64,000 bases of DNA from Acidobacteriota bacterium (GTDB taxonomy: Bacteria; Acidobacteriota; Vicinamibacteria; Vicinamibacterales; UBA2999): NCBI GenBank assembly GCA_020851565.1, contig JADZCN010000114.1, positions 30,361 to 94,360 of the forward strand, given 5' to 3'. The translations under genes were made by a program, and so were the position numbers. The notes below the pieces were generated by a model. The model made no database searches. It was not told the origin of the DNA and saw only the letters and a program-made list of their open reading frames with translations. Within the stretch, counting starts at the first letter, position 1, and every line of letters starts with the position of its first letter. This document shows positions 5,045 to 63,015 of the stretch, piece after piece.

Positions 5045-5047
5045 CCC

Positions 5048-5183: not shown

Positions 5184-5214
5184 TGCCGGCGCCCCGGCAG
5201 TATACTTCGCGCCA

Positions 5215-17766: not shown

Positions 17767-17778
17767 GGGCAAGACTAC

Positions 17779-17915
17779 CATTGAGCGATTGCTGATTGGC
17801 GATTGGGCGATTCACTGAAGATCGAGCGATTGGGGCATTGGGCATTGAATCGGGCGATTGGGTGATTGCGGCATCGGGCGATTCGTTGCTGGCAGACGTC
17901 GGCCCGTCGTCGCCC
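17779..17915. repeat. GATTG/CAATC palindromic-element family, half copy (E1)
   Basis: CCATTGAGCGATTGCTGATTGGCGATTGGGCGATTC...GGGCATTGGGCATTGAATCGGGCGATTGGGTGATTGCGGCATCGGGCGATTCGTTGCTGGCAG. It is homologous to one arm plus the centre of the elements at 27847 and 31022. Confidence 0.85.
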
Positions 17916-20900
17916 ACCGGGCGACCGCATAGGGGAACGTGTTGATCCAGACGGTGGGCGGCAGGTCGTCGAAGGTGTAGCTCTCGTTGAGCGTCGCGCT
18001 CGCCGTCCAGTCGGCCTGGAACGCCTTGGCTTTCAGCGTCACGGTCCCGGCCGCAAACGTGAGCGGCGACACGTACTCGCTCGAGGCCGCGGTCGGCTCG
18101 CTGCCGTCGGTGGTGTAGCGAATCGTCGCCCCAGCCGGGCCGCTGAGCACAATGGCCTCCGTGGGCTGATAGATCCCGGCGGGCGGCGTGGCTGTGGGCG
18201 TCGCCAGCGTGCCCTGGGTGATCGTGATCGCGGAGGTCGTCACCGCGCTCGGCGTCCAGCCCGTCCGGAACGCGCGCGCCTGCACGGTCGTCGTAGTGGT
18301 GACGGCAATGGCGCCCGTGTAAAGCGGGGAACCCTCGTCCGGCGTGCTGCCGTCCACGGTGTAGCGCAGCACCGCCTGCGGGTCCGCCGCGCTCAGCGTC
18401 ACCGTCTGCGGGCCGACGTATGTGCCCGTCCCCGGCGCCACCACAGGCGCCGCCGGCTGCAGCATGTACGTGGCAGACGCTACCACGCTCGGCGCCCGAT
18501 CCGGCACCCACGCCCGCGCCTTCAGCGTCGTCGTGCCCGTGATCAGCACGTCGCCGGTCGCCGGCACCTCGGGATCGCTCGCCGTCGGGTCCACGCCGGT
18601 TGTCGTGTAGCGCAGCGTCGCGCCCGGCACGGCGCTCGTGATGAGCACGATCTGCTCAGTGGCGTACGTGCCGGACGCGAGGCTCAGCGTGGGCGGCGGC
18701 GGGCTCCAGCGCCCCGGCGCCGTCCACGCCAGCGCCGGCGCCAGTCGGTTCGAGGTCGTGCCATCGCCCAGTTGCGAATAGTAGGCCTCGCCCCACGGTG
18801 TAGCGCAGCACGGCCTGCGGGTCCGCCGCGCTCAGCGTCACCGTCTGCGGACCCACATACGTCCCCGTCCCCGGCGCCACCGTCGGCGCCGCGGGCTGCA
18901 GCATGTAGGTGGCCGACGCCACCACGCTGGGCGCCCGATCCGGCACCCACGCCCGCGCCTTCAGCGTCGTCGTGCCCGTGATCAGCACGTCGCCGGTCGC
19001 CGGCACCTCGGGATCGCTCGCCGTCGGGTCCACGCCGGTCGTCGTGTAGCGCAGTGTCGCCCCCGGCACGGCGCTCGTGATGAGCACGATCTGCTCAGTG
19101 GCGTACGTGCCGGCCGCCAGGCTCAGCGTGGGCGGTGGCGGGCTCCACCGCCCCGGGGCCGTCCACGCCAGCGCCGGCGCCAGCCGGTCCGCCGTGGTGC
19201 CATCGCCCAGTTGCGAGTAGTAGCCGTCGCCCCAGGTCCACACGCCGCCGTCCATCGCCACCGCCACGCTGTGCGCGCTGCCCTGCGCCAGCAGCGTCAC
19301 GCCGGTGGGCCCGCTCAACTCGGTCGGGGTCAGCACGCTCGACGTCGTGCCGTTCCCCACTTGTCCCGACGTGTTCGTACCCCAGCCGAGCAACACCCCA
19401 GTGGGGCTGAGCGCGCCGCTGTGGTTGGTGCCGGCCGCCAGCACCGCCGCACTGGTCCCGGGCACCATGACGGGGACCGGATGGTCCGTCTGGCTGCCCA
19501 GTCCCAGCTTCCCACCCCCGCCATCCCCCCACGCCCACAGCGCGCCGCTGCGCGTCCGCGCCAGGCTGTGGAACGCGCCGGCCGCCACGTGGACCACGTC
19601 CGACAAACCGCCGATCGCCACGGGCGTCAGCCGGCTGGTGGTCGTCCCATCACCTAATTGGGAGGAAGTGTTGGCGCCCCAGGCCCACACCTGGCCCTCC
19701 GCCGTCACGGCCAGGTTGTGATTCGCCCCCGCCGCGATGGCAACGACGTTCGCGAGCCCATTCACCAGCAGCGGCACGGACGACGAGCCCGTCGTGCCCT
19801 GGCCGAGCTGACCGCTCGCGCCGTAGCCGAAGGCGTACACCTGGCCGGTACTCGCGAGCACGAGGCTGTGCGAGGCGCCCGCGGCCACCGCGACGATGGG
19901 CGGGAGCCCTCCGATGGGCACCGGCCGGCTGCGGTTCGACGAGGTCCCATCCCCCAGGCGCCCGTACGCGTTGTAGCCCCACGCCCAGAGCTGGCCGTCG
20001 GCGGTGGCCGCCAGGCTGTGCAGCCCGCCCGCCGCCACCGCCACGACGCCGGTGAGCGTCGGCACCAGCACCGGCGTCGGGCGCGTGGTGCTGGTGCCGT
20101 CGCCCAACTGCACATTGGTGTTGAACCCCCACGCGTACACCATGCCCTCGGGCGTGGCCAGCAGCGTGTGGCGATCCCCGGCCGACCCCGCACCGCCACT
20201 GAGGGGCGCTGTCAGGCTGTACGTGCCCGTCGCCACCGCGCTATCGCCGGCGCCGGTGCGGAACGCGCGCACCTTGATGGTGTACTCGCCGATCAGGATT
20301 GGCGTCGCCGGGATGGCGGGGCTGCTCGCCGTGGGGTCCGTACCATCGAGCGTCCAGCGCAGCGTCGCGCCGGGGTCCGGGCTCGTCACCGTCAGCGCGG
20401 TGCCCGGGGCGTAGCTCCCGGAGGGCAGACTCAGCACCGGCGTGCTCGCGACCACGCTGTAGGCCTGGGTGCTCACGGCGCTGGCCGTGTAATCGGGATG
20501 GAAGGCCTTGGCGCGCACGGTCGCGCTGACGTCCACGGGGAAGGGGCCCCCATAGAGCGGCGAGCCGGTGGTCGGCGTGCCGCCATTCACCGTGTAGTGG
20601 ATGGCCGCGAAGGGCTGCGCCTCCAGCGTCACCATCACCTGTCCCGTGAACGTGCCGGCCCCCGGCGTGATGGTCGGCGCCGTCAGCGTGCCGAAGTTCA
20701 TCGTGTACGTCGCCGTCCGCACGACCGAGTCGGACCAGTTCGCCTTGAACCCGACCGCCTTCAGCGTGGTCGTCGTCGCGATAGTGAGCGCGGACGCGTA
20801 GGCCGGAGACGCGGGCGTCGGGTCCGTGCCATCCACCGTGTAGCGGATCGTCGCGCCCGCCCTGCTGGTGGCAAGCGTCACCGTGCGCGCGCTCGTGTAC

Positions 20901-22197
20901 GTCCCCGCCGAGGGCGATACCGACGGCGTCGCCACCTGCATCGTGTAGGTGGCGCTGGCGGTGTTGCCGGGTGGCATGCCGGACTTCCACGCCCGGGCCT
21001 TCAGCGTCTGCGTCTGGGTCACTCCACGCTGCCGCCGGAGGCCACCACGGGATCCGATTCCGTCGGCTCCGCCCCGTTCTGCGTGTAGTGGATGGTCGCG
21101 CCCGTGGTGACGACCGACACCGTGACGGTCCGCTCGGTGGTGTAGGTGCCGGAGGCCACGCTGAAGGTGGGCGTGGCCACGCGCCAGGCAAAGTCGGCGC
21201 CACTGATCGACACGGGCGCCGACACATTGGTCGTCGCGCCGTCGCCCAGCTGGCTGGAGTTGTTCCGGCCCGCCACCCACACGTAGCCAAGCGGGGTGAT
21301 AGCCAGACTGAAGCCGTGTCCCGCCGAGAAGGCCGCCACCTCGCCCACGTTGGCCACCGTCACGGGGGTCGTCCGGTCGGTCGTCGTCGCGTCCCCGAGG
21401 CCACCGTAAGTGTTGTCGCCCCAGGCCCAGAGCGTGCCGTCCGCCCCAGCGGCGAGTGTGTGGTCCGAGCCCGCGTCGAGGGCGGCGAGGCCCGAGAGCC
21501 CGGTGACGGACACGGCCGTCGTGCGCTGATACGCCGTGGTGCCATCGCCCCACTGTCCCGACGCGTTGCGTCCCACGCCCATGGCGGTACCGTCGGCGAG
21601 CAGGAACATCGAGTGTCCCGAGCCGCCCGATGCGGCCACGACGGTGGTCAGACCGATCGCCTGCGCGAGCGTCGTGCGCGGTGTGGTCGTGCCATCGCCC
21701 AATTGCCCGTTGGTATTGGCGCCAGTCCCCCACACCGACCCGTCCGCCTTCACCACCAGCGTGTGCTCCCCTCCCGCGGCGATGGCCTGCGCTCCCGTGC
21801 TGAGCAACCACGGCGCGGTGACATTCGTGGTCGTCCCATTACCGATTTGGCCCACGCTGTTCGCGCCCCAGACATAGACATCGCCCGCGCTCGTCAGCGC
21901 CATGGAGTGCGTGTGTCCCGCGGCAATCGCCACGACCGAGGTCAAGGCCAGCGCCACGGGCGTCCTCCGGTTCGTGGTGGCCCCATCGCCCAGCTGACCA
22001 GAGGAATTGTTCCCGAATGCATACACCGTGCCCGCACTGCTCAAGGCCAGCGAGTGCGCGGTGCCGGCGGCGACGGCGACGATGTCCGCGAGCCCGGCGA
22101 CCTGCTGCGGCACGCGGCGGGTCGTGAGGGTGTTGTCGCCAAGCTGGCCACTGCTGTTGCTGCCAAAGGCCCAGACCGTGCTGTCGGATTTCACCAC
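17812..22197 (-). pseudogene. Disrupted giant RCC1-repeat / chitobiase-C-like (Ig-like) repeat protein, three reading-frame fragments
   Basis: Fragment 22197->21019 has RCC1 blades with GxNxxGQLGDG motifs, then an ATIHYTQNG..P Ig-like domain. Fragment ~21027->18656 is the in-frame part of ORF 18656..21811: about 6 ATxRYTxDGxxP domains, a second RCC1 propeller, and more Ig-like domains. Fragment ~18790->17812 completes it. The frames change at ~21020 (1-nt deletion) and at the 439-bp duplication junction at ~18790. No start codon or signal peptide precedes 22197 in frame. Confidence 0.75.
18352..19229. repeat. Direct tandem duplication, 2 x 439 bp, inside the RCC1 gene
   Basis: 18352-18790 aligns with 18791-19229 at a constant 439-nt offset. 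Examples: TAGCGCAGCA at 18362 and 18801; GATCAGCACG at 18541 and 18980; GGCGTACGTG at 18661 and 19100. About 8% of positions mismatch by eye, but a central ~190-bp stretch is near-identical. 439 is not a multiple of 3. Confidence 0.9.
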
Positions 22198-22482
22198 CAG
22201 CGTGTGCTGGTAGCCGGCCGCGATGCGGCGCGCGGCAGGCGCGGGAGGCTGGGCGGAGACGAGGTGCGGAAGCGTGAAGAAGGAAGGGGGTGACCCGGTG
22301 TCACACCAAGGCAGACGGACGCAGGATCGTGAATTCCGCGGACGTGGCCCAAGGACCTGCCGAACTCCTGCCGCCGGCAGGCCGTCAGCGTCTCGGAAGT
22401 GCGGTCTTGTCGTCCAGGATGGTCAACAACCAGCCCGATCGACCACGCAGTGGAAGGAAACCGAATGCCCAATCACGACCGC

Positions 22483-24999
22483 TCACTCGTAGCGCAGCGC
22501 GCGTACAGGTTCCACCGCGGCAGCCCTTCGCGCGGGCAGATAGCCCGCGAGCGCGCCCACCAGGGCGAGCGCGGCGGCGGCCGCCAGCAGCGTGAGCGGG
22601 TCCGTGGGCGACAAGCCGAAGAGCTGCGAGGACACGACGCGGCTCAGGGCCAGCGCCGCGGGGATGCCGATCAGCACGCCGACGCCGGTGAGCACGGCCA
22701 CTTCCCGCAGCACCAGCCACACGACGCTGCCGCGCTCCGCCCCGAGCGCGATGCGGATGCCAATCTCCCGCGTGCGGCGCGCGACTGTGTAGGACATCAG
22801 GCCGTAGAGGCCGACCGCCGCCAGCAGCGTGGCCAGCAGGCCGAACGCCGCCGAGAGCACCGCCAGCATGCGCTCGGTGAACACGGCCTCGTCAATCGTC
22901 TGCTCCATCGTCGTGACGTTGTAGAGCGGCAGGCTGGCGTCGCGGCGGCCAACGGCGTCCCGGATTCGCTCGACGAGGCCGGCACGGCCCTCCGGCGTGG
23001 AGCGCACGTAGACCGTCATCCCCGTCAGCTCCGTGCTCTGCTGCAGCGGCGTGTAAGCGAACCGCCGGACCTGGTTGTCCTCCGTCGTCCCCTCGCGCAT
23101 GGTGCCGTGCAGCGAGTCCTTCACCACGCCCACGATCTCGATGGCGCCGGGGTCGTTCAGCACGCGCCAGCCGAAGCGGCGCCCGATGGGGTTCTCCGAC
23201 CCGAAGTAGTACCGCGCGAAGGTCTCGTTGACGACGGCGACGAGCGGCGCGCCCTCGACGTCCCTCGGCGTGAACTCGCGCCCCAGCAGCAGCGGCTGCC
23301 CCATGGTACGGAAGTAGTCCGGTCCCACCTCGTTGGTCCACGGGTTCATGTTCTCGTCGGGCTTCGTCTCGTACCCCTGCACCTGGATGGTGCGGCTGGA
23401 GATGCTGTCGGTGAGCACAGGCTCGGCTGCCATGGAGACACCGGCGACGCCGGTGACGGCCTGCAGATCCTGCTGCAAGGCCGCATAGAACTGCTTGATG
23501 CGCGCTTGCGAGTAGCCTGCCAGCTCGGGGCTGATGGCGAACGACACGAGGGAGGTGGCGTCGAAGCCCGGGTTCAGGTGCTTCAGGTTGTACAGGCTGC
23601 GCGCGAAGAGCCCCGCGCCCGCCACCAGCAGCATGGAGAGCGCCACCTGGGCCACCACCAGTCCCTTGCGCAGCCGTGCGTGCGCGCGTCCGCCACTGAG
23701 CGCCCCGGCCTCTTCACGGAGTGTGCGGTTCATGTCGGGCCTGGACGCCTGGAGTGCCGGAGCGAGCCCGAAGACCACCGCGGTGACGAGCGACACGGCC
23801 AGGGCGAAGAGGCCCACGCGGAGGTCCGGCGTGGTGGAGAGCATCCGCGTGGTCGAACCGGTCGACGGCAGCAGCCCCACCAGCAGCTCGCCCACCCAGA
23901 CCGACAGCACCAGCCCCACGGCGCCTCCGGCGAGCGACAGCAGCAGGCTCTCCAACAGCGCCTGGCGGACGATGCGGCCGCGGCTGGCGCCGAGCGCCAG
24001 GCGCACGCCGATCTCCTTCTGCCGGGCGGCGGCCCGCGCCACCAGCAGGCTCGCGACGTTTGCGCAGGCGATGAGCAGCACCATTCCCACCATGCCCATC
24101 AGCACGACCACCGGCGCGCTGAAGCCCTGCCGCAGTCCGGACAGGCCGCGCCCCGCCGGCTCCATCTCGATGCTCTTCGCGAGGAACCGCTCCTTGAAGA
24201 GCGCGCTGCCCCTGGCAAACCCAGGCACGGCCTCGAGGTCGTGCGCGTTGATCTGCTTGTAGAGCACGTCGAGCCGCGCGCGCGCCGCCTCGAGCTCGAG
24301 CCCGGGCTTCAGCCGCCCCACGATGTTCACGAACCGCGTCTGACGGTCGTCGAGGCCGTCCCAGGTGGGCGTGATCTGCGCCTTCATCGTCAGCGGCACG
24401 AACACATCCGGGCTGCTGAGCGCGACCACACCTGCAAAGCCCGCGGGCGCCACGCCAATCACGGTCATCGGCGTGGTGTTGATCGTCAGTGCCTGGCCGA
24501 GCACCTGGGGACTGCCCGCGAAGCGGCGCATCCAGTACGCGTGGCTCAGCATCATCACGGGGTGTCCCGCTCTCACGCGATCGTCGTCCGGCGACAAGGC
24601 GCGGCCGAGGGCAGGGCGGGCCCGCAGGACCTCGAAGGTGTTGCCGGAGACCATCTCTACGCTGACGCGCTCGGCCTGGCCGTTCTGCACCAGCGTGGCT
24701 GATGCGGGCGCTCGGGCCACGAGGCCGGAAAACACGTCGCTGCGGTCCCGCAGGTCCTGGTACATCGGGTACGAGAACGTCCGATCGTTCATCGTCCGCC
24801 CGCTGAAGGGCCCCGGGCCATCCAGCTGGACGAGCTCATCCGGCCGATCCACGGGCAGCATCCGGAGCATGAGCTGGTCCATCAACGAGAAGATGGCCGT
24901 GTTGGCGCCGATGCCGAGTCCCAGGGTGAGCACGACCACCAGCGTGAAGGCCGGGGCGTGGAAGAGAGTGCGCAGCGCGTATCGAAGATCGGTGAGCAT
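22483..24999 (-). CDS. MacB/FtsX-type duplicated orphan permease (ADOP-like ABC permease)
   Basis: 838 aa. N-terminus MLTDLRYALRTLFHAPAFTLVVVLTLGLGIGANTAIFS, two FtsX-like 4-TM modules each followed by a large periplasmic domain, and C-terminus PVRALRYE. No adjacent ATPase. Confidence 0.9.
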   Translation of the reverse strand: MLTDLRYALRTLFHAPAFTLVVVLTLGLGIGANTAIFSLMDQLMLRMLPVDRPDELVQLDGPGPFSGRTMNDRTFSYPMYQDLRDRSDVFSGLVARAPASATLVQNGQAERVSVEMVSGNTFEVLRARPALGRALSPDDDRVRAGHPVMMLSHAYWMRRFAGSPQVLGQALTINTTPMTVIGVAPAGFAGVVALSSPDVFVPLTMKAQITPTWDGLDDRQTRFVNIVGRLKPGLELEAARARLDVLYKQINAHDLEAVPGFARGSALFKERFLAKSIEMEPAGRGLSGLRQGFSAPVVVLMGMVGMVLLIACANVASLLVARAAARQKEIGVRLALGASRGRIVRQALLESLLLSLAGGAVGLVLSVWVGELLVGLLPSTGSTTRMLSTTPDLRVGLFALAVSLVTAVVFGLAPALQASRPDMNRTLREEAGALSGGRAHARLRKGLVVAQVALSMLLVAGAGLFARSLYNLKHLNPGFDATSLVSFAISPELAGYSQARIKQFYAALQQDLQAVTGVAGVSMAAEPVLTDSISSRTIQVQGYETKPDENMNPWTNEVGPDYFRTMGQPLLLGREFTPRDVEGAPLVAVVNETFARYYFGSENPIGRRFGWRVLNDPGAIEIVGVVKDSLHGTMREGTTEDNQVRRFAYTPLQQSTELTGMTVYVRSTPEGRAGLVERIRDAVGRRDASLPLYNVTTMEQTIDEAVFTERMLAVLSAAFGLLATLLAAVGLYGLMSYTVARRTREIGIRIALGAERGSVVWLVLREVAVLTGVGVLIGIPAALALSRVVSSQLFGLSPTDPLTLLAAAAALALVGALAGYLPARRAAAVEPVRALRYE

Positions 25000-26546: not shown

Positions 26547-26588
26547 GGACCCGCTGGTTGGACGCAGGGCCGACAGGCGTGGATCCGG

Positions 26589-26708
26589 GTGCGGGCGGGT
26601 GCGAACAGGTGCGAACAGGTGCGGGCGGGTGCGGGCGGGTGCGGGCGGGTGCGGGCGGGTGCGAACGGGTGCGGGCGGGTGCGAACAGGTGCGGGCGGGT
26701 GCGAACAG
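26589..26708. repeat. 12 x 10-bp tandem array with two unit states (GTGCGGGCGG / GTGCGAACAG)
   Basis: Read directly. Unit order is G A A G G G G A' G A G A. It lies in the divergent gap between starts 26546 (-) and 26728 (+). The same family occurs at 54643-54807 and, reverse-complemented, at 40505-40560. Confidence 0.95.
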
Positions 26709-26727
26709 GTGACGTGAGGGGAGGCAG

Positions 26728-27195
26728 GTGATGGTCACGCGACGAGAGGTGGTGACGGCGGGCGTGATGGGGGTGCTGTCCACGTCGGCTGCGGCGGAAG
26801 CGGCGGGCGGAGGGGGTGGCGGCGTGGCGGCCGCCTCGGCGCAGTCGGCAGAGGCGATCAGCGCCGAAGCCCTCCGGGGCATCCTGCGCGAGCTGCAGGA
26901 GGTGCGCGAGGCGCTCGACCTCACGCTCCGGCAGAACTCGCTGGCCATCGGCGCCATTGCTCCCATCCGCCGGGCGTTCGAGTTGTTCCTGCGCTCGAAC
27001 ATGAAGTACCCCGACTATTGCGAGATCGGCCACGGCGTCTTCACCGAGCTCTACGACTGGCACGTGAAGCACCGGCAGCCCATCGAGGTGCAGCGCGTGG
27101 AGGGCCGCATGGCCATCCGCTTCATGTTCACGTGGATGCTGCTCAGGCCGGAGCAGGATCCGAACTTCGTCGGGATTGCCTACGATCGGGGATGA
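26728..27195 (+). CDS. Hypothetical protein with possible twin-arginine signal
   Basis: 155-aa ORF (GTG 26728 or ATG 26731) preceded by GGGGAGG. N-terminus VTRREVVTAGVMGVLSTSAAAEAA. No family recognised. Confidence 0.55.
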   Translation: MMVTRREVVTAGVMGVLSTSAAAEAAGGGGGGVAAASAQSAEAISAEALRGILRELQEVREALDLTLRQNSLAIGAIAPIRRAFELFLRSNMKYPDYCEIGHGVFTELYDWHVKHRQPIEVQRVEGRMAIRFMFTWMLLRPEQDPNFVGIAYDRG

Positions 27196-27200
27196 GCGGG

Positions 27201-27243
27201 CGCAGGGTGCAAGGGTGCAAGGGTGCAGGGGTGCAAGGGTGCC
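27201..27243. repeat. About 5 x 8-bp array GGGTGCAA/GGGTGCAG
   Basis: CAGGGTGCAAGGGTGCAAGGGTGCAGGGGTGCAAGGGTGCC. Same unit family as 56576-56642. Confidence 0.9.
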
Positions 27244-27274
27244 TGGATCCCGGGTCCCAAAGTAAGCTGTCCCG

Positions 27275-27853
27275 ATGCTTCCCGCTGAACTGCAGGACTT
27301 GATCGACCAGGTCGACGCCGCCGAGGCCGACGCGCGGACGTTGGTCCGCGGGCTCGACGACCGCCAGGCGAACTGGCAGCCGGATGGTGGTCAAGCGTGG
27401 AGCATCGCGCAGTGCCTGGACCACCTCGCGCGCATGAACAGCTTCTACGTCGAGGCCGTCCTGCCGCGCGTGCGGCGGGCGGCCGAGGGCTCGGTGGCGC
27501 CCTTCGAGTCGCTGGCGCCGACGTGGCTCGGGCGCAAGTTCGTCGAGTCGATGGAGCCGCCCGTGACGCGCCGCTTCAAGGTCCCTGCCGCGCGCGTGGC
27601 GCCTGCCTCCGACATGCCGGTCGCCGACGCCCTGGCCGCCTTCGGCAACAGCCACACCCGCTACCGCGAGCTGGTGCGGCTGTGCGCGGGCCTCGATCCG
27701 AACCGCGTCCGCGTGCCCAACCCGTTCTTCAAATGGGTGTGGATGAGGGCCTCCACGGTGCTCCTCGTCATTCCCGCGCACGACCGTCGCCACCTCTGGC
27801 AGGCTCGCCGGGTTCTCGCGCGGCCCGACTTCCCGAGCACCGCTGTCCATTGA
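27275..27853 (+). CDS. DinB family protein
   Basis: 192 aa. WSIAQCLDHLARMNSFY and IPAHDRRHLWQARRVL His-containing helices are typical of the DinB/DinB_2 four-helix bundle. The stop TGA (27851-53) lies inside the CCATTGAGCG terminus of the repeat element. Confidence 0.75.
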   Translation: MLPAELQDLIDQVDAAEADARTLVRGLDDRQANWQPDGGQAWSIAQCLDHLARMNSFYVEAVLPRVRRAAEGSVAPFESLAPTWLGRKFVESMEPPVTRRFKVPAARVAPASDMPVADALAAFGNSHTRYRELVRLCAGLDPNRVRVPNPFFKWVWMRASTVLLVIPAHDRRHLWQARRVLARPDFPSTAVH

Positions 27854-28129
27854 GCGATTGCAGATTGGTGATTGAGTGATTCATTGGGTGATTGGCGATT
27901 GACGCATCGGGCATTCGGATTGAGTGATTCAGGGATTGAGCGATTGCCTCATTGGGGGCTGAGAGCCGACGGCCAGTGACAGCGTGGTCGCCGGGCGGCG
28001 ACGAATCGCCGGATGCCCCAATCACCCAGTCGCCCAATCCAATGCCCAATGCCCAATCGTCAATCACCCAAGGAATCGCTCAATCAGCAATCGGCAATCG
28101 CCAATGGACGCGCGACGGCTCACAGCACC
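27847..28129. repeat. GATTG/CAATC palindromic element, full copy (E2)
   Basis: Left arm CCATTGAGCGATTGCAGATTGGTGATTGAGTGATTCATTGGGTGATTGGCGATTG. Right arm CAATCGTCAATCACCCAAGGAATCGCTCAATCAGCAATCGGCAATCGCCAATGG (ends 28107). A conserved flank ACGCGCGACGGCTCACAGCACC follows. Confidence 0.9.
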
Positions 28130-28337
28130 GTCGATGTCCCAGCCCTCGCGCAGCCTCCTGCGCCCGATATTCGGCGGTCCCGGCCCGGCGCGGCCCCGAA
28201 GTGCCGAACCTCCGGCGGCCAGGCGGCGCGCCCCCCTGGGACATGCGCCAGCGAGCATGACCGCCGTGGCACGATCATTGATTTGACGACGGCGGAGCCG
28301 CGCGCTCGGTCCCTGGTGCTCGACCAGGAGGAATGTC

Positions 28338-31028
28338 ATGCGCGCCCCCTCGTTGTCATTCGTTCGTGCCGTCGTGGCTGTGTCTATCGCCGCGTTTGGA
28401 ATCGCCACGCCTGCACATGGCCAGCAGGGGTGGTCGAGCAGCGTGGTGACGCTGTCGGTGCCGCAGGTGGACCACGACGGGTTGCAGGTCTGGCTTCGAA
28501 AGCGGCCGGCGCTGGCGGCCGATCCGGCCGGCAATGTCGTCGCCGTCTGGGTCCAGCCGGTCTCCGCGTTCGCCGCCGTCGTCCAGGCCGCGCGGTATTC
28601 GGCGGCAGCCCGCGCATGGGGAGCGCCGGTCACGCTTTCGGGGGCAGGTATCCCCACCGAACCGCGGGTCGTGGTCGACAGCGGAGGAAACGCGCTCGCC
28701 GTGTGGGGGAGGTTCAATGGTCCGGTGCAGTCCGCGCGCTACCTGCGGGACTCCAATGCATGGACCGGCCCGATCGAGGTCGATTCAGGCATCTTGTTTG
28801 CGGACGAGCTGGATCTGGTCGCCGACGCCGCGGGCAATGCGTTCGCCGTCTGGGTGCAAAGAAACGCGTCGGCAGACGTCGTCCCAGGGGTCTATGCGGC
28901 ACGTTTCAGCGCCGGCAGCAACGCGTGGGCGACTGTCGTCCCGATGTCGGCCACGGACGCGTGGCAGCCACGGATTGCCGTGGATGCCTCCGGCAATGCC
29001 ACAGTGCTCTGGGTTGCCCGGGTGGGCACCAGCCTGGACTGGGTGGTTCACGCGCGCCGCTATGTGGCCGGCGCCGGAGCCTGGACCGAGGCGGTCGAGC
29101 TCTCGTCCGGTGGCAGCGCCGCGCCGTTTGGTATCAACCTTCGCATCGTCTCCGATGCGACGGGGCAGATGACCGCAGCGTGGTCGCTGTCTCAGTTCGA
29201 TGAAATGGAGGACGTGACCTACACGACGGTTCAGGCGCGTCGCTACACTCCGGCGACTGGGTCGTGGGGGCCGGTGGTCGACCTGTCGGCTGCCGGGGGA
29301 GATGCGCGCTGGCCGACGCTGGCGGCCGACGGGACTGGCGGTGCCTTTGCCGCCTGGCTCCAGTACTCACCGGACGGCGACGTCGCGCGGGTCCAGGCGA
29401 CTCGCTTCTCGGCTGATGCCGGAGGCTGGAGCGCACCGGTCGATCTCGGTCCGCCTTGTACGTGGGGACGACCCGGTACTTTCCCCGAAGTCGTCGCCGA
29501 CCACGAGGGCAATGCGTTTGTGATCTGGGTCCAGACCTTCGAGGAGCCGGTGCCCGGCAGCGCGCTCCAGGCGGCCCGATACGTGGCAGCTACTGCATCC
29601 TGGGGCGCCGCCGTCATCCTCGAGGTGGGCGCCCCCGAGCATCAGACCGCGGTCGATTCGTTGGGCAACGTCGTCGTCGTCTGGTCCTACGGTGCGCGTG
29701 CGGCCAGGTTCGTGGTGACGGCGGGCGCGTGGACGCCATCCGTCACCGTCGGGCCGGGACCGTCGGTGTTGGCCATTGCCCCGGGGATGGCCGTCGATCC
29801 GCTGGGCAACGTGACGCTGGCCTGGAACCGGTTCGACAGGTTCACCGAGGTATCGGACATCGCGAGCAACCGTTGGGTGGCCGCGCCATTGGCCCCCACC
29901 ATCGGCGTCGTCAGCCCGGGGGCCGGCTCGCTGAGCGTGGCGTTCTCGCCGCCGCCCACTTCGGAACCGTTGTTCGCTCCGACCAACTACGCGTACTCGG
30001 TCGATGACGGCGCGACGTGGCACCTGCGAGATCCGGCGTCCGCGGCGTCGCCGGTGTTGATCGCCGGGCTCACGGACTTCGTTCCCTGCAGGGTGCGGCT
30101 GGTCGCGATCAATCGCGCCGGCCCTGGACTGGCATCTTCGTCCGTTCTGGCGGTGCCACATCCGGTTCCGTTGGCGCCACGAGAGCTGACGGCCACATCG
30201 ATTGTCGGCAACACCGTCACGTTGTCATGGATCGCTCCGCAAGGCGGCATCCCGCCGACGGGGTACGTCCTCGAAGGCGGCGTTCACCCCGGCGAGGTCC
30301 TGGCCAGCATTCCCACGGGGAGCATCGCACCGCAATTCACGTTCGAGGCGCCGGCAGGCGCGTTCTACGTACGCGTCCATGCGGTTGCCGGCACGCTGCG
30401 CAGCGCACCCTCCAACGAGATTCAAATCGTCGTCCGCGTAGCAGCGCCACCATCGGCGCCGGTCAACCTCCGCGGCCTCGTCAACGGCTCCGACGTCGCG
30501 CTGTCGTGGACGAACACGTTCGACGGCGGTGCGCCCACGAGCCTGTGGCTGAGCGTCACTGGCGCGATCGAGACGGCGTTGCCGCTACCGATGGCAGAGA
30601 CCTTCACGTACGCGAACGTGCCGCCGGGCACTTACACCCTCCGCGTCGTCGCGGCAAATGCGGTGGGGACCAGCCCGTTCTCGAACGCGGTGACATTGAC
30701 TTTCCCTGGACCGTGTACGGGCGTGCCGGGCGTGCCGGTCAATCTCCAGACGTGGAAGGTCGGCAGCACGATCTTCGCGAGCTGGGACGCCCCGGTGAGT
30801 GGGCCGGCGGCGACGGGGTACGGCGTGTTCGTCTCCGGCGCGTATGTCGGTGGCTTCACGACGACCGCGCGCACGCTCTCGGGTGTGGCGGGGCCCGGTG
30901 AGTACGTCATCAGCGTGGCCGCGACCAACGCGTGCGGGACGGGGCCGGCGACGGCGTCGCAAACGGTTGTCCTTCCGTGGCTCGCGCCGTCACGAACAGG
31001 CGTCATGCGCGCTCGCGGCGTCCATTGA
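28338..31028 (+). CDS. Secreted protein: nine ~45-aa repeats (probable beta-propeller) followed by 3-4 fibronectin type III-like domains
   Basis: 896 aa; AGGAGGA SD; signal peptide ending ATPAHGQQ. Repeats have the form D..GN(A/V)xxVW..(15-25 aa)..ARY/ARF....AW..PV.L, nine times. The C-terminal half has FN3-like modules (LSVAFSPP.., VTLSWIAP.., VALSWTNT.., IFASWDAP..). Confidence 0.75.
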   Translation: MRAPSLSFVRAVVAVSIAAFGIATPAHGQQGWSSSVVTLSVPQVDHDGLQVWLRKRPALAADPAGNVVAVWVQPVSAFAAVVQAARYSAAARAWGAPVTLSGAGIPTEPRVVVDSGGNALAVWGRFNGPVQSARYLRDSNAWTGPIEVDSGILFADELDLVADAAGNAFAVWVQRNASADVVPGVYAARFSAGSNAWATVVPMSATDAWQPRIAVDASGNATVLWVARVGTSLDWVVHARRYVAGAGAWTEAVELSSGGSAAPFGINLRIVSDATGQMTAAWSLSQFDEMEDVTYTTVQARRYTPATGSWGPVVDLSAAGGDARWPTLAADGTGGAFAAWLQYSPDGDVARVQATRFSADAGGWSAPVDLGPPCTWGRPGTFPEVVADHEGNAFVIWVQTFEEPVPGSALQAARYVAATASWGAAVILEVGAPEHQTAVDSLGNVVVVWSYGARAARFVVTAGAWTPSVTVGPGPSVLAIAPGMAVDPLGNVTLAWNRFDRFTEVSDIASNRWVAAPLAPTIGVVSPGAGSLSVAFSPPPTSEPLFAPTNYAYSVDDGATWHLRDPASAASPVLIAGLTDFVPCRVRLVAINRAGPGLASSSVLAVPHPVPLAPRELTATSIVGNTVTLSWIAPQGGIPPTGYVLEGGVHPGEVLASIPTGSIAPQFTFEAPAGAFYVRVHAVAGTLRSAPSNEIQIVVRVAAPPSAPVNLRGLVNGSDVALSWTNTFDGGAPTSLWLSVTGAIETALPLPMAETFTYANVPPGTYTLRVVAANAVGTSPFSNAVTLTFPGPCTGVPGVPVNLQTWKVGSTIFASWDAPVSGPAATGYGVFVSGAYVGGFTTTARTLSGVAGPGEYVISVAATNACGTGPATASQTVVLPWLAPSRTGVMRARGVH

Positions 31029-31297
31029 GCGATTGCCGATTGGTGATTGAGCGATTCATTGGGTGAGTGGTGATTGAAGCATCGACGCATTCGGATTGAA
31101 GATTGACCGATTCCGCGATTGCGGCATTCGCGGCCGGCGGCCACGGACAGCGCGGTCGCCTGGCAGCGACGAATCGCCCGATGCCCCAATCACCCGATCG
31201 CTCAATCCAATGCCCAATGCCCAATCGCCAATCACCCAATGAATCGCTCAATCCGCAATCGGCAATCGCCAATGGACGCGCGAGGGCTCACAGCACC
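31022..31297. repeat. GATTG/CAATC palindromic element, full copy (E3)
   Basis: Collinear with E2 over its whole length at roughly 85% identity by eye, including the centre ..GACAGCGCGGTCGCCTGGCAGCGACGAATCGCCCGATGCCCCAATCACCC and the flank ACGCGCGAGGGCTCACAGCACC. It contains the stop of 28338..31028 (TGA 31026-28) and the stop of 31288..32550 (TCA 31288-90). Confidence 0.9.
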
Positions 31298-32550
31298 CGC
31301 CCGAGCCTCTCCAACCCTTCTTCGATTCTGGCGAGGTCGTGCACCAACGGCCCGAAGGAGATACGCACGCCGTTGGTGAGTGACGGCCCGAAGCCGCGGC
31401 CCGGGACCACCAGGACACCCGTTGCCTTCAGCGCCTCGGGCACGAAAGCCTCGGCGTCGCGGCCGACGTCCACCACGGTGTAGAGGCCGCCGGCCGGCAC
31501 CAGGCGCGGGCGCCGCAGGTGCCGGTCCACCGCGTCGATGGTCACCTGCGCGGCCTTCTTGTAGAGGGCATTGGCGTGGTCCACGTAGCGCTGCAGCGAG
31601 CCGCTCGGGATGGCACGCTTCAGGTACCGCGCCATCGTCATCTGCTCCAGCGTGTCCGGGCAGAGGATGCTGCACTGCTGCACGCGCTCGATGGCGTCGA
31701 TCACGCCCGGCGCGGCTTCAATCCAGCCAAGCCGCCGGCCCAGCCCGCGCGCCCACTTCGAGTTGGAGTGGATGCCGATGAGGTTCGGGTGGTCCGCCGG
31801 CGACCACGCGTAGTACGAGGGATACGGCGCGAAGTACTGGCACTTGTAGGCGAAGTCGATGGCCAGCCACGCGCCCGCGTCGCGCGTCTGCTCGAGCATG
31901 GCTTCGGCCAGCGCCTGCGGGACGATCTGGCTCGTGGGGTTGTCGGGCGCGCCGAAGAGCACGAGCTTCGGCTTGTGCTGGTCGAAGAGGCGGCGGAACT
32001 CGCGCGCCGTTCCCTCGGCATCCGCCTCGGGCAGGTACGTCCACGTCGCCGGATCGACGACGCGCAGCCGGACGATATTCGCGCCGGGCGTGGCGAAGGC
32101 GAGCTGGCCTTCGTAGTTGGCGTAGGTCGGGTCCAGCAGCATCACCGTGTCGCCGGGATCCACGAGCGTCCGGAACAGGTCGTGCGTCAGCTGCGTGCTG
32201 CCGATGCCGAGGGCGACGTGCTCCGCGCCCAGGCGCGGGACCCCGAAGAGCGCCGCCTCGAACTGCGCGATCTGCTCGCGGCATTCCATGTCGCCGAGCG
32301 TGGCGGTGTAGCCGCCGCTCTTGTGGAAGAGCGCCGGGTCGCTGGCCACTTCGACATAGGCCTGACGGAACTCCTCCGGCGCCTCGTGGTTCACCCAGCC
32401 GCCGCCGAACGAAATCACGTCGTCCGGGTTCAGGCCCATCGCGACGATGTTCTGGCGCTCCGCCATCTTCATGATCTGGCGGATGGGCGAGGGCGAGGAC
32501 ATCTGGGCGCGGACGAGTGACGAGAGTGCGGGCGCGGTGACCGATGGCAT
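31288..32550 (-). CDS. Class I/II pyridoxal-phosphate-dependent aminotransferase
   Basis: ORF 31288..32601. PLP-lysine context HSNSKWARGLGRRLGW. The start is set to the ATG at 32550 because TATGAT lies 7 nt upstream and a 9-bp hairpin occupies 32564-32595. ATG 32562 and 32601 are alternatives. Confidence 0.8.
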   Translation of the reverse strand: MPSVTAPALSSLVRAQMSSPSPIRQIMKMAERQNIVAMGLNPDDVISFGGGWVNHEAPEEFRQAYVEVASDPALFHKSGGYTATLGDMECREQIAQFEAALFGVPRLGAEHVALGIGSTQLTHDLFRTLVDPGDTVMLLDPTYANYEGQLAFATPGANIVRLRVVDPATWTYLPEADAEGTAREFRRLFDQHKPKLVLFGAPDNPTSQIVPQALAEAMLEQTRDAGAWLAIDFAYKCQYFAPYPSYYAWSPADHPNLIGIHSNSKWARGLGRRLGWIEAAPGVIDAIERVQQCSILCPDTLEQMTMARYLKRAIPSGSLQRYVDHANALYKKAAQVTIDAVDRHLRRPRLVPAGGLYTVVDVGRDAEAFVPEALKATGVLVVPGRGFGPSLTNGVRISFGPLVHDLARIEEGLERLGRVL

Positions 32551-32610: not shown

Positions 32611-32701
32611 CTGCCTCCTGCTCCCTGACCCCTGCTCCCTGCTCCCTGCTCCCTGATCCCTGCTCCCTTATGGCTGATCCCTGATCCCTGATCCCTGATC
32701 C
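32611..32701. repeat. 8-bp unit array CTGCTCCC / CTGATCCC (about 10 units)
   Basis: CTGCCTCCTGCTCCCTGACCCCTGCTCCCTGCTCCCTGCTCCCTGATCCCTGCTCCC..GATCCCTGATCCCTGATCCCTGATCC. It is the reverse complement of the GGGATCAG array at 62385-62420. Confidence 0.95.
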
Positions 32702-36402: not shown

Positions 36403-38844
36403 ATGAACGACATTCGCCTCGCAGTACGGCTCCTCGGAAAGAACCCCGGGTTTGCTCTCACGGCCGTCGTGACGCTGGCGCTGGCCATCGGCGCCAACAC
36501 CGCGGCGTTCTCGCTCGTGGATGCGGTGTTGCTGAAGCCGCTGCCGTATCCGCAGCCGGAACGGCTGGCCGTGGTGTCCCGCGAGGTATTTCGCGGGGGT
36601 GCGATGGTCGGGCAGGACGTCAGCCATACCGGCGCCGTGTGGGAGGCCGTGCGCGACCAGGTGCCGTCGGTCGACGCCGCCGTGCAGTTCGGCCTGTCCG
36701 CGCAGGTCAGCCTGGTGACAGGTGATCGCGCCGTGGCGGTCCGGCCGGAACGCGTAGGCGCCGGGTTCTTCCGCGTCCTGGGCGTGGGTCCCGCCCTCGG
36801 GCGCGAGTTCACGGCCGACGAGGACCGGCCCGGCGGACCGGCCGCGGTCATCCTGGGCGATCGGCTCTGGCGCTCGGCGCTCGGAGGCGACCCGGCCGCC
36901 GTCGGGCGGACGATCCTCCTGAAGGGTGAGCCGCACACGGTGGTGGGCATCATGCCGTCGTCGTTCCGCACGGCGGCCGAGGCGGATCTCTGGACGCCCG
37001 TCCGGGCCACGCGGACCGGGGAGGGAGAAGGCGAGAACTTCGCCATCGTCCTGCGGTTGCGCGAGGGTGCCACGTGGGCCCAGGCGACGGCCGAGATCGC
37101 GGCGGCGGCGGCCGCGGCCGTAAGATTGCCACCAGCATCGAGCGGGATCACGTTCCGTCACGGCGTGCAGCCGCTGCAGGATGCGATGGCGAGCGACGTG
37201 CGGCGGCCGCTGCTGCTTCTCTGGAGCGCCGTCGGGCTGGTGCTGCTCGTGGCGTGCGTCAACCTCGCGGGGCTGATGCTGGCGCGGGCCGGCTCGCGCG
37301 CGCGAGAGATCGCCACGCGGCTGGCCATTGGCGGCAGTCGGCACGCCATCGTGCGGCAGCTCATGATCGAGAGCCTGGCGATTGCCGCGATCGGAGGGCT
37401 GGCCGGGGTGGTCGCTGCGGCCCTGGCGCTGGGCGGATTGAAGGCGATGGCCGACGGCCTGGTCCTCACGCCGTGGGGCGCGGTCGGCCTCGACGGACGC
37501 ACGCTGCTGGTGACGATGGGGATCTCGGTGCTGACGTCGCTGCTGTTCGGGCTGGCTCCTGCATGGCAGGCGACACGCGTGGACGTCCGGGGGGCGCTCT
37601 CCGCGTCGGGCACGCGTGCGGTGGCCGGCGGCGCCGGCGGCTGGCCGCGGCGGCTGCTGGTGGTGGGCGAGGTGGCGCTCGGCGTCGTGCTGCTCGTGGG
37701 CGCCGGCCTGCTGATCCGCACCTTCATGCACCTGCAGTCGCGGCCGACCGGCTTCGATCCGCGCGGCCTCGTCGCCGCGACCGCTTCTCTCGAGGATGCG
37801 CGCTACAGCGACCACGCGAGCGTCGCGAGGCTGTTCGAGACGAGCCTGTCGCGGATGCAGGAGATTGCCGGGGTGGAATCGGCGGCGGTCTCGCTGGGCC
37901 TCCCCTACGAGCGCATCCTGAACATGGGGGCCGAGCGCGTGGGCGCGGAGGGACAGCCCGAGGGCGGGTTCCTGTTCTCCACGGCGACCTACGTCACGCC
38001 GGGCTACTTCGAGACGCTTCGCCTGCCCGTGCGGCGCGGGCGTGGCTTCGACCGGTTCGACGGATCGGACGCGGCGCCGGTCGTGGTGATCAACGAGGCC
38101 TTCGCGCGGCGGTATTTCCAGGGCCAGGATCCCGTCGGCCAGCCGGTAAGGATGGCCGGGCGCGTCCGCCAGGTCGTCGGCGTGGTGGCCGACGTGCCCC
38201 AGCAGGGCGGCTTCGCCGGCTACGGTCCCATCGACGCGCTGCCCGGCATCTACGTGCCCTTCGCGCAGTTTCCGCCGAACGGCCTGCGCGTGTATCACGG
38301 CTGGTTCTCGCCGGCGTGGATCGTGCGCGAGGCCGTGCCCGGCGCGGTGAGCGAGCGCGCGCTCCGCGCGGCGATGGCGGATGTCGATGCCGGGTTACCG
38401 CTGGCATCGGTCCGGGCGGTGGACGAGCTGCGCGCCGCGGCGCTTGGACGCCAGCGGCTCCTGATGACGCTCGTCGGCCTGCTCGGCGCGGCCGCGCTGC
38501 TGCTCTCGGCCCTGGGCATTCACGGGCTGATTGCCGGCGCCGTTGCCGAGCGGACGCGCGAGATGGGCATCCGCCTCGCGTTGGGGTCATCGACCGGGCA
38601 GGCGGTGCGCAGCGTGTCGATGCCAGGCATCTACCTCGCCCTGGCGGGCCTTGCCATCGGCGTCGTCGCGGCGTGGGGCGCCTCGGGCCTGGTCCGCGGC
38701 CTCATCTGGGGCGTGACAGGGGACGATCCCCTCACCTATGCCGCGGTGGCCGGCACCCTGCTCGCCGTCGCCGTGGTGGCGTCGGTGCTGCCCGCCCGCC
38801 GGGTGCGACGGCTCGACCCGGCCAGGCTGCTGCGGCAGGAGTGA
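36403..38844 (+). CDS. MacB/FtsX-type duplicated orphan permease (ADOP-like)
   Basis: In-frame C-terminal part of ORF 35584..38844 from the ATG at 36403. N-terminus [37 protein letters not shown]; C-terminus DPARLLRQE. It starts 29 nt after the preceding paralog. Confidence 0.9.
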
Positions 38845-38872
38845 GGGCGGGGGCGGCCGGGGGGGGCGGCGC

Positions 38873-38967
38873 TCATTGATGATTGGTGATTGGGGGATTG
38901 AGCGATTCGGCTGTCGCGCCGAGGAATCGTCCGATGCGGCAATCACCAATCTACAATCGCTCAATGG
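38873..38967. repeat. GATTG/CAATC palindromic element, short copy (E4)
   Basis: TCATTGATGATTGGTGATTGGGGGATTGAGCGATTCGG..CCGATGCGGCAATCACCAATCTACAATCGCTCAATGG. The right arm contains TACAAT (38952-57) and the ATG (38964) of the next gene. Confidence 0.85.
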
Positions 38968-39476
38968 GTACGGCGCCGGCCACCACAGCCATCCGCCAGT
39001 TGCGCGAGCACGGCATTCCCTTCAGCGAGCACCCCTATCGGTATGAAGAGCGGGGGGGCACCCGTGTGTCTTCCCGCGAGCTGGGGGTGGACGAGCACGC
39101 GGTCATCAAGACGCTCGTGATGCAGGACGAGCGCCGGCAGCCGCTCATCGTCCTCATGCACGGCGACCGCGAGGTCTCCACGAAGAACCTCGCCCGCCAG
39201 ATCGGCGCGAAGGCGGTGGAGCCGTGCGACCCCGCCGTGGCGGAGCGGCACACCGGCTACCAGGTGGGCGGCACCTCGCCGTTCGGCACGCGGAAGGCGC
39301 TGCCAGTGTTCGTGGAGCGCAGCATCCTGGACCTGCCGCGGATCTACATCAACGGCGGCCGGCGCGGGTTCCTCGTCGCGCTCGCGCCCGGGGATCTGGC
39401 GCGCGTGCTGTCGCCCACGGCGGTGGACGTCGCGCTGGAGCACCGGGCGGGGGAGCCGGGAGGCCGCCGGAGCTGA
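38964..39476 (+). CDS. ybaK: YbaK/EbsC-family Cys-tRNA(Pro)/aminoacyl-tRNA deacylase
   Basis: In-frame part of ORF 38883..39476 from the ATG at 38964. Motifs HAVIKTLVM, HGDREVSTKNLARQIG and TGYQVGGTSPFG are typical of YbaK trans-editing domains. Confidence 0.8.
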   Translation: MGTAPATTAIRQLREHGIPFSEHPYRYEERGGTRVSSRELGVDEHAVIKTLVMQDERRQPLIVLMHGDREVSTKNLARQIGAKAVEPCDPAVAERHTGYQVGGTSPFGTRKALPVFVERSILDLPRIYINGGRRGFLVALAPGDLARVLSPTAVDVALEHRAGEPGGRRS

Positions 39477-43106: not shown

Positions 43107-43172
43107 CCCCTCGGCGCCCCACGCCCCACGACTCAAGCCCCAGGGCCCAAGACCCAGGGCCCAAGACCCTAA
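43107..43172. repeat. C-rich degenerate array (CCCCACG / CCCAAGACC / CCCAGGG units)
   Basis: CCCCTCGGCGCCCCACGCCCCACGACTCAAGCCCCAGGGCCCAAGACCCAGGGCCCAAGACCC. It lies in the divergent gap between starts 42953 (-) and 43288 (+). Confidence 0.8.
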
Positions 43173-52443: not shown

Positions 52444-52465
52444 CCCGGTGCCTCGCTTCCTCCCC

Positions 52466-53266: not shown

Positions 53267-53281
53267 GGGGGATGGTACTAC

Positions 53282-62784: not shown

Positions 62785-62800
62785 GCACGGAGCCCGGCGT

Positions 62801-62980
62801 CCATTGACGATTGCCAATTGACGATTGGGTGATTCATTGGGCGATCGGGCGATTGAGCCAAGGCGGCATTTGGATTGGTTCAATGCGTCAATGGCCCATT
62901 GCGCCAATCCGAATGCCCCAATGCCCAATCGCTCAATCACCCAATGAATCGCTCAATCACCAATTGGCAATCATCAATGG
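62801..62980. repeat. GATTG/CAATC palindromic element, full copy (E5)
   Basis: Left arm CCATTGACGATTGCCAATTGACGATTGGGTGATTCATTGGGCGATCGGGCGATTG. Right arm CAATCGCTCAATCACCCAATGAATCGCTCAATCACCAATTGGCAATCATCAATGG. It starts 17 nt after the stop of 62032..62784. Confidence 0.9.
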
Positions 62981-63015
62981 ACACCTCCTCCGGCAACCTG
63001 TCGCCGCGTGCCGCT

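Follow-up and report, generated by a model that had tools for sequence, protein, structure and literature searches.

Do the long palindromic sequences built on the motif GATTG, one of which spans positions 27,847–28,129 of a 64,000-nucleotide stretch of Acidobacteriota DNA (order Vicinamibacterales; contig JADZCN010000114.1, positions 30,361 to 94,360; hereafter the window), belong to a dispersed repeat family, and if so, of what kind? The original prediction described five such loci of one architecture, each with a left arm of degenerate GATTG-containing units of ~7 nt, a variable centre and a right arm that is the reverse complement of the left, and likened them to REP/BIME (repetitive extragenic palindrome, bacterial interspersed mosaic element) or MITE (miniature inverted-repeat transposable element) families. 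This likeness is supported by computed complementarity, by further copies elsewhere and by the lack of a match to a known family. The sequences are probably a lineage-specific, non-coding, non-autonomous dispersed repeat, organised as a REPIN- or MITE-like inverted doublet of foldback type. Related genome stretches and metagenome contigs compared with the window are given L-numbers (L001 and so on).

All five loci were present as described (Table 1), with the terminus CCATTGAGCGATTG and arms of GATTGNN(N) units common to every one. The left arm starts with (GT)CCATTGAGCGATTG and the right arm, its reverse complement, ends in CAATCGC(C/T)(C)AATGG(AC). The 21-nt terminal pattern CCATTGAGCGATTGNNGATTG had four occurrences in the window, where shuffled sequence gave an expectation of 0.00; the copy at 62801-62980 has the variant termini CCATTGACG and CCATTGATG. 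The predicted GATTG cores were confirmed, but the units are 7 or 8 nt long and not strict heptamers. Similarly, all five copies exist, but those at 27845-28129 (copy A) and 31020-31297 (copy B) are one duplicated locus and not independent, and the centre described for these two long copies, although common to both, is locus-specific, other loci having different centres.

When each arm was aligned with the reverse complement of its partner (over at most 110 nt), identity was 0.85, 0.84 and 0.81 in the three long copies of the window and ranged over 0.70-0.88 in a set of 29 elements; the manual estimate of 85-90% complementarity for the outer ~55 nt was about right by computed alignment. The half copy at 17778-17903 was complementary to the right arms at 31152-31222 (86%) and 27989-28054 (85%). 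RNA folding predicted near-continuous hairpins for the full copies, with z-scores of -11 to -14, in keeping with the proposed very long imperfect hairpin: -174.5 kcal/mol for copy A (27840-28135, z -11.5), -173.8 kcal/mol for copy B (31015-31305, z -13.7) and -129.0 kcal/mol for the compact copy (62790-62990, z -13.4). The short copy (38865-38975) gave -49.2 kcal/mol (z -4.3). Two further statements, that the elements are less GC-rich than their surroundings and carry no credible open reading frame (ORF), also held. The GC content of the window elements was 0.57-0.61 against about 0.70 around them, that of 35 elements was 0.525 against 0.701 in their 300-nt flanks, and no ORF with native codon statistics was found in the elements.

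With a hidden Markov model of the terminal 50 nt of the arm, 164 arms were matched (in 141 cases with the match anchored at the terminus) and 39 different full elements were recognised, in intergenic sites unrelated to one another. The canonical element is ~260 nt long (range 95-355) and consists of two inverted ~105-nt units round a locus-specific, GC-rich centre of 3-75 nt. Arm length has its mode at 100-108 nt on the left and right alike, the lengths of the two arms are uncorrelated (r about 0), and outliers are one-sided. Core-to-core spacing over 790 intervals was 7 nt in 34% and 8 nt in 38% (together about 73%), the most frequent units being GATTGAGC, GATTGGC, GATTGGT and GATTGCC. The outer 45-60 nt of each arm have a fixed unit order, CCATTGAGC-GATTGSY-GATTGNN-GATTGAGC-GATTCATTGGGT-GATTGGC-GATTGGGGCAT..., and an ordered terminal sequence of this length (~45-60 nt) is common to more than 80 arms from unrelated loci. 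Conservation is far higher in the GATTG cores and the ordered terminal 45 nt than in the spacers and the interior, and the cores within an arm all point one way, so that a single arm forms no internal hairpin. Centres are unrelated between loci and often have only the innermost GCGATTCG...CGAATCGC in common.

The boundary of the element is sharp, with information below 0.6 bits up to position -3, 1.0 at -2 and 2.0 from the first C of CCATTG. A weak GCGT outside one end mirrors ACGC beyond the other, which makes it an inverted extension of the palindrome, and no direct target-site duplication was found in the flanks of the 39 full elements. Besides these 39 doublets, every one of which is head-to-head, there were roughly 10 genuine singlets, including a solo arm that forms a clean 127-nt insertion in L052 relative to L051, L053, L054, L056 and L058. 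Left-right and left-left identities across elements were equal (0.766 each), and own-arm identity was only slightly higher (0.807). The family is a dispersed repeat, copied between sites, in which both arms are copies of one unit. Purely local microsatellite growth, with GATTG expanding in place, fold-back replication producing the palindrome and no copying between loci, would fit the demonstrable slippage, the unique centres and a genome unusually rich in other short tandem arrays. Such an origin is nevertheless very improbable, since more than 80 arms at unrelated loci share unit order, a sharp end and a length of ~105 nt, features that rule out independent growth at each site.

To define the distribution of the family, one genome per species was scanned with the terminal pattern, and 43 stretches were returned. 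Seven high-GC Acidobacteriota assemblies (JBFWQE01, DAIRFN01, DATLLC01, DATJFF01, CAUJDN01, JAHEKS01 and CAZLBU01, five of them labelled Vicinamibacterales or Acidobacteria-type) contributed 37 of these; the other six look like chance matches in unrelated taxa, and the match in JAHEKS01 (L048), which has no GATTG cluster round it, may also be due to chance. Many further copies are present in related Vicinamibacterales metagenome-assembled genomes (MAGs) and metagenome contigs. CAZLBU01 (L010, L016, L031, L037 and L038) carries the family under the label 'uncultured Bifidobacteriaceae'; its GC content of 0.68-0.70 and its 90-93% identity to the window over aligned stretches indicate that the label is probably wrong.

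The aminotransferase encoded next to copy B had its best matches at 92% identity, and its relatives are named 'Vicinamibacterales bacterium'. Among 80 metagenome loci gathered through this gene, the family occurred only in relatives of at least 84% identity; an element lay upstream of the gene in L060 (84%), the site downstream of the gene was occupied only at 85-92% amino acid identity, and none of the loci at 80% identity or less contained the family. In a neighbour-joining tree of the aminotransferase the element-bearing lineages formed one clade, within which L005 (a 4.6-Mb genome) and L055 are nested without elements, as apparent losses.

Rfam returned no match at gathering thresholds for the whole window, and a relaxed search with the elements gave one spurious hit (E=0.29). 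BLAST searches of the elements against plasmid and phage collections gave no match, a scan of viral contigs gave only two chance matches in coding DNA of 40% GC, and no relevant description was found in the literature under the sequences themselves or under Acidobacteria or Vicinamibacter repeats. The earlier statement that the elements fit no described family agrees with these searches, and the GATTG palindrome family is apparently undescribed so far.

The position of the elements relative to genes was then considered. Contexts were convergent for 15, tandem for 15 and divergent for 3 of the 33 classifiable elements, and 30 of the 33 abut a gene 3' end, with the nearest stop codon typically -7 to +17 nt from the element end. 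About nine ends have as their stop the TGA within CCATTGAgcg, so that the final His codon and the stop codon both come from the element; the DinB_2 gene ends at such an element-borne TGA in the window, in L009 and in L001. The stop codons listed in the original prediction were correct, including the two TGA stops inside termini, at 27851-27853 (DinB_2 gene) and 31026-31028 (a gene with fn3 domains). The aminotransferase stop (31288-31290, minus strand) lies 12 nt beyond the right end of copy B, TAG 62782-62784 lies 16 nt before the CCATTG of the compact copy, and TGA 38842-38844 lies 28 nt before the short copy. The claim that every copy is seated on a gene end stood as regards nearby stops, but the half copy abuts the start of a peptidase M1 gene, and the neighbouring ORF extends into it with its 3' end. 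At an empty orthologous site in L055, only 12 nt separate the convergent stops, and any frame entering a sense arm, as read from the sequence, reaches TGA within 14 codons. Closeness to stops thus follows from tiny 3' spacers and from an early TGA in every sense-arm frame, and the seating at gene ends is largely a consequence of the tiny 3' spacers.

This seating would also fit a selected RNA structure, in which a ~100-bp hairpin, transcribed from the upstream gene, would end transcription or protect the mRNA 3' end, a role also proposed for REP/BIME, and would serve both convergent genes. The 3'-end bias is strong, the interval between two convergent stops is taken up entirely by the element, high stability is predicted for the hairpins, and one solo arm (L018) is followed by a classical terminator hairpin; moreover, no canonical intrinsic terminators were found in 27000-32000, so something else must end transcripts there. 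In the outer stem, 93.0% of positions were paired and double-sided changes numbered 54, compared with 22 after shuffling, and lineage-specific changes were symmetric on both arms. Compensatory evolution was nevertheless rejected, as the apparent covariation is explained by a lineage-specific consensus and disappears in a within-genome shuffle: in DAIRFN01 an arm paired with its own partner no better than with the arms of other elements (0.960 against 0.957). A small excess (0.929 against 0.906) was seen in the mixed window-type group. As own partners have no advantage within a genome, pairing is a property of the family consensus and is not kept per locus at the RNA level.

Other observations also weigh against selection on an RNA hairpin. 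G-U wobbles were not significantly enriched on the transcribed strand (86 G-U against 70 A-C mismatches), and transversion mismatches were as common as transitions (261 against 305). The stem is not followed by a U-tract, some arms occur singly or lie in a divergent promoter region, and 100 bp of double-stranded RNA would be a substrate for RNase III and not a protective cap. A selected hairpin is accordingly an unlikely explanation that still deserves some weight, and the sequence comparisons favour a DNA-level repeat. A terminator or stabiliser role is possible as a side effect; the tests gave no support for selection on it.

Comparison of orthologous sites showed how resident copies change. 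Between the near-identical contigs L001 and L002 there is a difference of five CAATCGCT units, located in a run of 14 units. The short copy of the window has lost roughly 60-65 nt inside both arms relative to its 224-nt orthologue in L007 (2350-2573); another orthologue, in L001 (3194-3530), is 335 nt long. The consensus is also genome-specific. TTGCAGA was present in 32 of 37 DAIRFN01 arms and in 1 of 54 arms of other genomes, and GATTGATTG in 23 of 37 against 0 of 54. The DAIRFN01 consensus holds at three sites orthologous to window copies, and three of the four DAIRFN01 sites in a syntenic stretch of 20 kb are occupied in the window. These shared sites are better explained by occupancy in the ancestor and later homogenisation (or site-specific re-copying) than by colonisation of each genome independently.

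Conservation of this kind would also be expected of a protein-binding array, in which the GATTG iterations are DNA sites for a host protein that co-evolves with the genome-specific consensus. The well-conserved cores and ordered termini, a consensus that is genome-specific even at orthologous sites, the islands of 52% GC in a genome of 70% GC, and the fact that sequence and not pairing appears to be maintained are all consistent with this. We regard such an array as improbable. No candidate protein is known; a period of 7-8 bp does not keep step with the DNA helix and is shorter than binding sites usually are; half copies, deletions and widely varying unit numbers are tolerated; and absence from the close relatives L005 and L055 argues against an essential role. 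The protein of such an array might, for example, be nucleoid-associated, a roadblock to transcription or replication, or a silencer of lower-GC DNA.

Gene content differed between the window and its sister genomes at three elements, each time by a gene-sized segment. In L009 (JBFWQE01) and in L001 and L003 (DAIRFN01 and JGI contigs), a single element lies between the DinB_2 and aminotransferase genes. In the window, the element and 22 nt of its right flank are present twice (27845-28129 and 31020-31297, 89-92% identical), and the insertion between them carries a gene for an 896-aa secreted fn3-domain protein (28338-31028), with a GC content at third codon positions (GC3) of 0.81 against 0.90-0.93 in neighbouring genes. 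Copies A and B are an old duplication of one locus; which of the two is the resident copy is ambiguous by identity to L009. The spacer between the peptidase M1 and MacB genes holds a full element in L038 (1314-1585) and in L001 (16494-16759) and the half copy in the window, where a ~4.6-kb segment replaces the missing arm; window 15159-17900 aligned with L038 4171-1463, and window 22480-23778 with L038 1298-1. This segment encodes RCC1-repeat and CHB_HEX_C_1-repeat proteins (Pfam), frameshifted. Upstream of the aminotransferase, L009 has a half arm and the window a 1.35-kb gene with a CCTGATC array.

Element centres elsewhere hold cargo. The centre in L034 contains a 23S_rRNA_IVP four-helix-bundle gene, those in L016 and L039 a glycosyltransferase-like fragment, and that in L021 an insertion sequence (IS) encoding a transposase with an HTH_29 domain. 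The L021 transposase, the only one seen between arms, was considered as the cognate enzyme of the family and rejected, as its IS has inverted repeats of its own and inserted independently into the element centre.

Both element-inserted regions of the window (28338-31028 and 17812-22300) encode large secreted repeat proteins, one with fn3 domains and one with RCC1 and CHB_HEX_C_1 repeats. These genes have lower GC3 (0.81-0.88) and higher GC2 than their neighbours (GC3 0.90-0.93), a composition compatible with a foreign origin. The RCC1/CHB_HEX_C_1 frame is broken into ORFs at 17812-18648, 18656-21811 and 21019-22197, and contains a 439-nt tandem duplication (18354-19234, 2.0 copies, 93% identical) that is not a multiple of 3.

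Gene-sized insertions or deletions at elements in three places, cargo between arms, a species-specific consensus and an inserted fn3 gene flanked by two directly oriented copies could each be expected of cassette-type recombination sites similar to integron attC (imperfect palindromes that are specific to a species and follow genes at their 3' ends), at which a recombinase inserts and excises genes. The details differ from this. The duplication extends over 22 nt of unique flank, as expected of homologous or replicative recombination and not of a crossover at a core site; the elements are found in varying orientation among housekeeping genes and form no co-oriented cassette arrays; and the ~105-nt arms are far longer than those of attC. 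The GATTG termini, CCATTGAGC...GCTCAATGG, contain no R''/R' cores (RYYYAAC ... GTTRRRY), and no integrase is encoded nearby. A cassette system is therefore a most unlikely explanation.

The preferred reading, a non-autonomous dispersed repeat, would work as follows. The unit is a degenerate, ordered array of GATTGNN(N) 7-8-mers ending in (GCGT)CCATTGAGCGATTG. This unit, or the doublet, would be copied to new sites without target-site duplication by a trans-acting enzyme, for which a transposase that handles single-stranded hairpins, of the HUH/RAYT (REP-associated tyrosine transposase) or IS110 type, is the most plausible candidate, presumably through a single-stranded intermediate. Copies would survive almost only in very short spacers behind stop codons and be inherited vertically over long periods. 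Gene conversion or re-copying would keep their termini at the genome-specific consensus, and replication slippage would expand and contract the internal units. The centre of the palindrome may be a fragile site, at which foreign DNA is gained or an arm is lost.

Several points weigh against this reading. No transposase or RAYT with GATTG termini was found in ~1 Mb of collected loci, searched by local tblastn with approximate queries (IS200 TnpA and E. coli RayT). RAYT-like genes were found only in the distant relatives L068, L084 and L080, where classical GTAG-type REPs and no GATTG arms flank them. No recent insertion was seen between near-identical genomes, all comparisons of filled and empty sites being between sequences of 70-80% identity, and the three window sites in the syntenic stretch are all occupied in sister genomes, which leaves present-day mobility unproven. 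Copying of whole doublets would not lead one to expect unique centres, and a genome-specific consensus at orthologous sites needs an extra process, putatively conversion or re-insertion. The copy number, maybe several hundred per genome, is an extrapolation from 8 arms in 64 kb, the window's own whole genome lying outside the collections. GTAG in the flanks was considered as a RAYT signal and rejected, its frequency fitting that of TAG stop codons.

A bolder version of the repeat hypothesis is that the elements are the cis part of a new bacterial 'foldback' system of mobility and gene capture, whose enzyme would recognise the GATTG termini, homogenise them and open the centre. This is rather improbable. 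If true, the genes between arms or copies (fn3 and RCC1, and the cargo in L016, L021, L034 and L039) would have been inserted by it, and the family would be an engine of gene gain in Vicinamibacterales.

Comparison with known systems places the family nearest to REPINs and MITEs, although membership in REPIN, MITE, attC or any Rfam family is not claimed. The logic of REPINs (PMC3116915) is that of extragenic inverted doublets with a variable spacer, singlets alongside, no target-site duplication and long vertical persistence. GATTG elements share this: both are non-coding, extragenic, high-copy inverted doublets with a less conserved spacer and predicted single-strand hairpins in DNA or RNA, and in both doublets predominate over some singlets, inheritance is vertical and target sites are not duplicated. 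They differ in that the GATTG half is a ~105-nt non-palindromic array and the REP a small palindrome of 20-35 nt with a GTAG-type head, and in that the element measures about 260 nt against about 70-110 nt for a REPIN. Furthermore, no RAYT flanked by GATTG repeats was found in the ~1 Mb of loci, nor compensatory evolution within the elements. A species-specific consensus, a bias to gene 3' ends and a role as hotspots for IS insertion are features of REP/BIME elements as well. Classical GTAGGGCC... REPs occur in distant relatives, and once in the window by chance; those flanking RAYT-like genes in distant Vicinamibacterales are of the GTAGGGCCCCCC... type.

Bacterial MITEs (such as Correia/NEMIS, RUP and Nezha) are likewise small, ORF-less, multicopy and lineage-specific, with sharp-ended inverted repeats, and an internal variable tandem repeat can occur in a MITE, as in Porphyromonas gingivalis, where one contains a minisatellite (PMC4596501). 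Unlike MITEs, GATTG elements lack target-site duplications, no autonomous IS with matching ends was found for them in the ~1 Mb of loci, their inverted repeats, composed of short iterations, take up almost all of the element, and conservation of the centre from copy to copy is lacking. Foldback-type transposons of eukaryotes (Drosophila FB, Galileo (PMC3573991) and Tetris (PMC4079207)) resemble them in very long inverted repeats of tandem short units, in unit number and arm length that vary, in a variable or cargo-bearing middle, and in rearrangements and chromosomal segments bracketed by two copies. Those transposons are kilobase-scale, duplicate their target sites and have a transposase of the P or MULE superfamilies, whereas neither an element-encoded transposase nor a target-site duplication was found for the GATTG family in the loci collected; the comparison is architectural only. 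In cyanobacteria, short tandemly repeated (STRR) heptamers were reportedly described by Mazel et al. in 1990. These share with the GATTG family tandem iterations on the heptamer scale at many intergenic sites of one lineage, but are simple tandem runs with no fixed terminal order or palindromic doublet; the window contains many further arrays of this scale too.

Table 1 Features of the window. Positions are those of the 64-kb stretch.
Feature	Position	Strand	Description
Half copy	17778..17903		single arm (terminus CCATTGAGCGATTGCTGATTG) with inner part GGCATCGGGCGATTCGTTGCTGGCAG; second arm missing
Segment of ~4.6 kb	17904..22482	-	present in the window only, absent in sister genomes
Full copy A	27845..28109	+	ends GTCCATTG...CAATGGAC
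Copy A, left arm	27847-27954	+	
Copy A, centre	27955-28002	+	
Copy A, right arm	28003-28107	+	
Duplicated flank	28110..28129	+	duplicates the final codons and stop codon of the aminotransferase gene (GCGCGACGGCTCACAGCACC); travelled with copy A
Insertion of 2.9 kb between copies A and B	28130..31019	+	absent from L009 and L001
Full copy B	31020..31277	+	
Copy B, left arm	31022-31121	+	
Copy B, centre	31122-31170	+	
Copy B, right arm	31171-31275	+	
Short copy	38873..38967		95 nt; derived from a full element by arm deletions
Compact full copy	62799..62982		180-nt core 62801-62980; arms 77 and 100 nt; centre ~3 nt; between convergent genes
Other short tandem arrays	4394-4445, 5041-5197, 5256-5288, 6501-6577, 26576-26745, 27204-27242		
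Other short tandem arrays	32617-32701, 40506-40562, 43116-43169, 47541-47672, 52372-52445, 53280-53433		
Other short tandem arrays	54620-54808, 56574-56641, 58588-58690, 61922-62009, 62193-62290, 62380-62430		

Other repeats were abundant in the window. Short tandem arrays with units of 7-15 nt were found in about 20 of its roughly 45 intergenic regions. Their units (CGGGTGCGGG, ACGGAGGTTCGAAGC, CAGAACCC, CAAGCCC, GATCAGG, GTCGGGA, ATCTGCGTCC and AGGGTGCA) recur at several loci in both orientations, also as mosaics. Array density was 2.7 per 10 kb in the window and its near relatives against 0.3-1.4 in other Vicinamibacterales. The 10-mer array at 40506-40562 has about 5 units, against about 29 at the orthologous site in L007 (4110-4400), a minisatellite-like hypervariability. 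The array at 54620-54808 is a second palindromic element, composed of tandem 10-mers of GTGCGGGCAG type followed by their reverse complement CGCACCCGCC, which suggests that an architecture of folded-back iterations is not unique to the GATTG family. Those at 5041-5197, immediately upstream of a start codon on the minus strand (about 5045), and at 53280-53433 are 15-mer arrays whose unit contains GGAGG (Shine-Dalgarno-like).

Between convergent genes at 781-1090 lies a cluster of small GC-rich stem-loops (such as GGCCCTTCGGGCC and CCGGCGAAGCCGG) with a periodicity of 47-51 nt, which is of BIME-type appearance and does not belong to the GATTG family. The RAYT-like genes of the distant relatives (L068 432-854, L084 2384-2776 and 2880-2960, and L080 7-261) adjoin the aminotransferase gene and have REPs of the form GTAGGGCCCCCCTTTACGGGGGGCC; L084 also contains a tandem array of 19-nt partial REP units (GAATCTCCGTAGGGCCYCC). 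A palindromic motif containing CACGAAGG occurs in the window at 6501-6543 and in L068 at 205-290 and 1000-1070, where it flanks the RAYT/REP unit on either side as a palindrome of ~70 nt.

Vicinamibacterales are abundant, hard-to-culture soil Acidobacteriota, for which no published account of repeat content was found, and the GATTG family is the first repeat family characterised for this soil lineage. Its elements and the short tandem arrays nearby together account for much of the intergenic space. Short-read assemblies probably break at the elements, and many of the MAG contigs studied here end inside an arm. Element length and unit number differ between sister genomes and could serve as strain markers, and the elements mark places where the gene content of sister genomes differs. 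With this family the REPIN/MITE concept comes to include a foldback architecture, and the puzzle arises of what keeps dispersed termini homogeneous within a genome.

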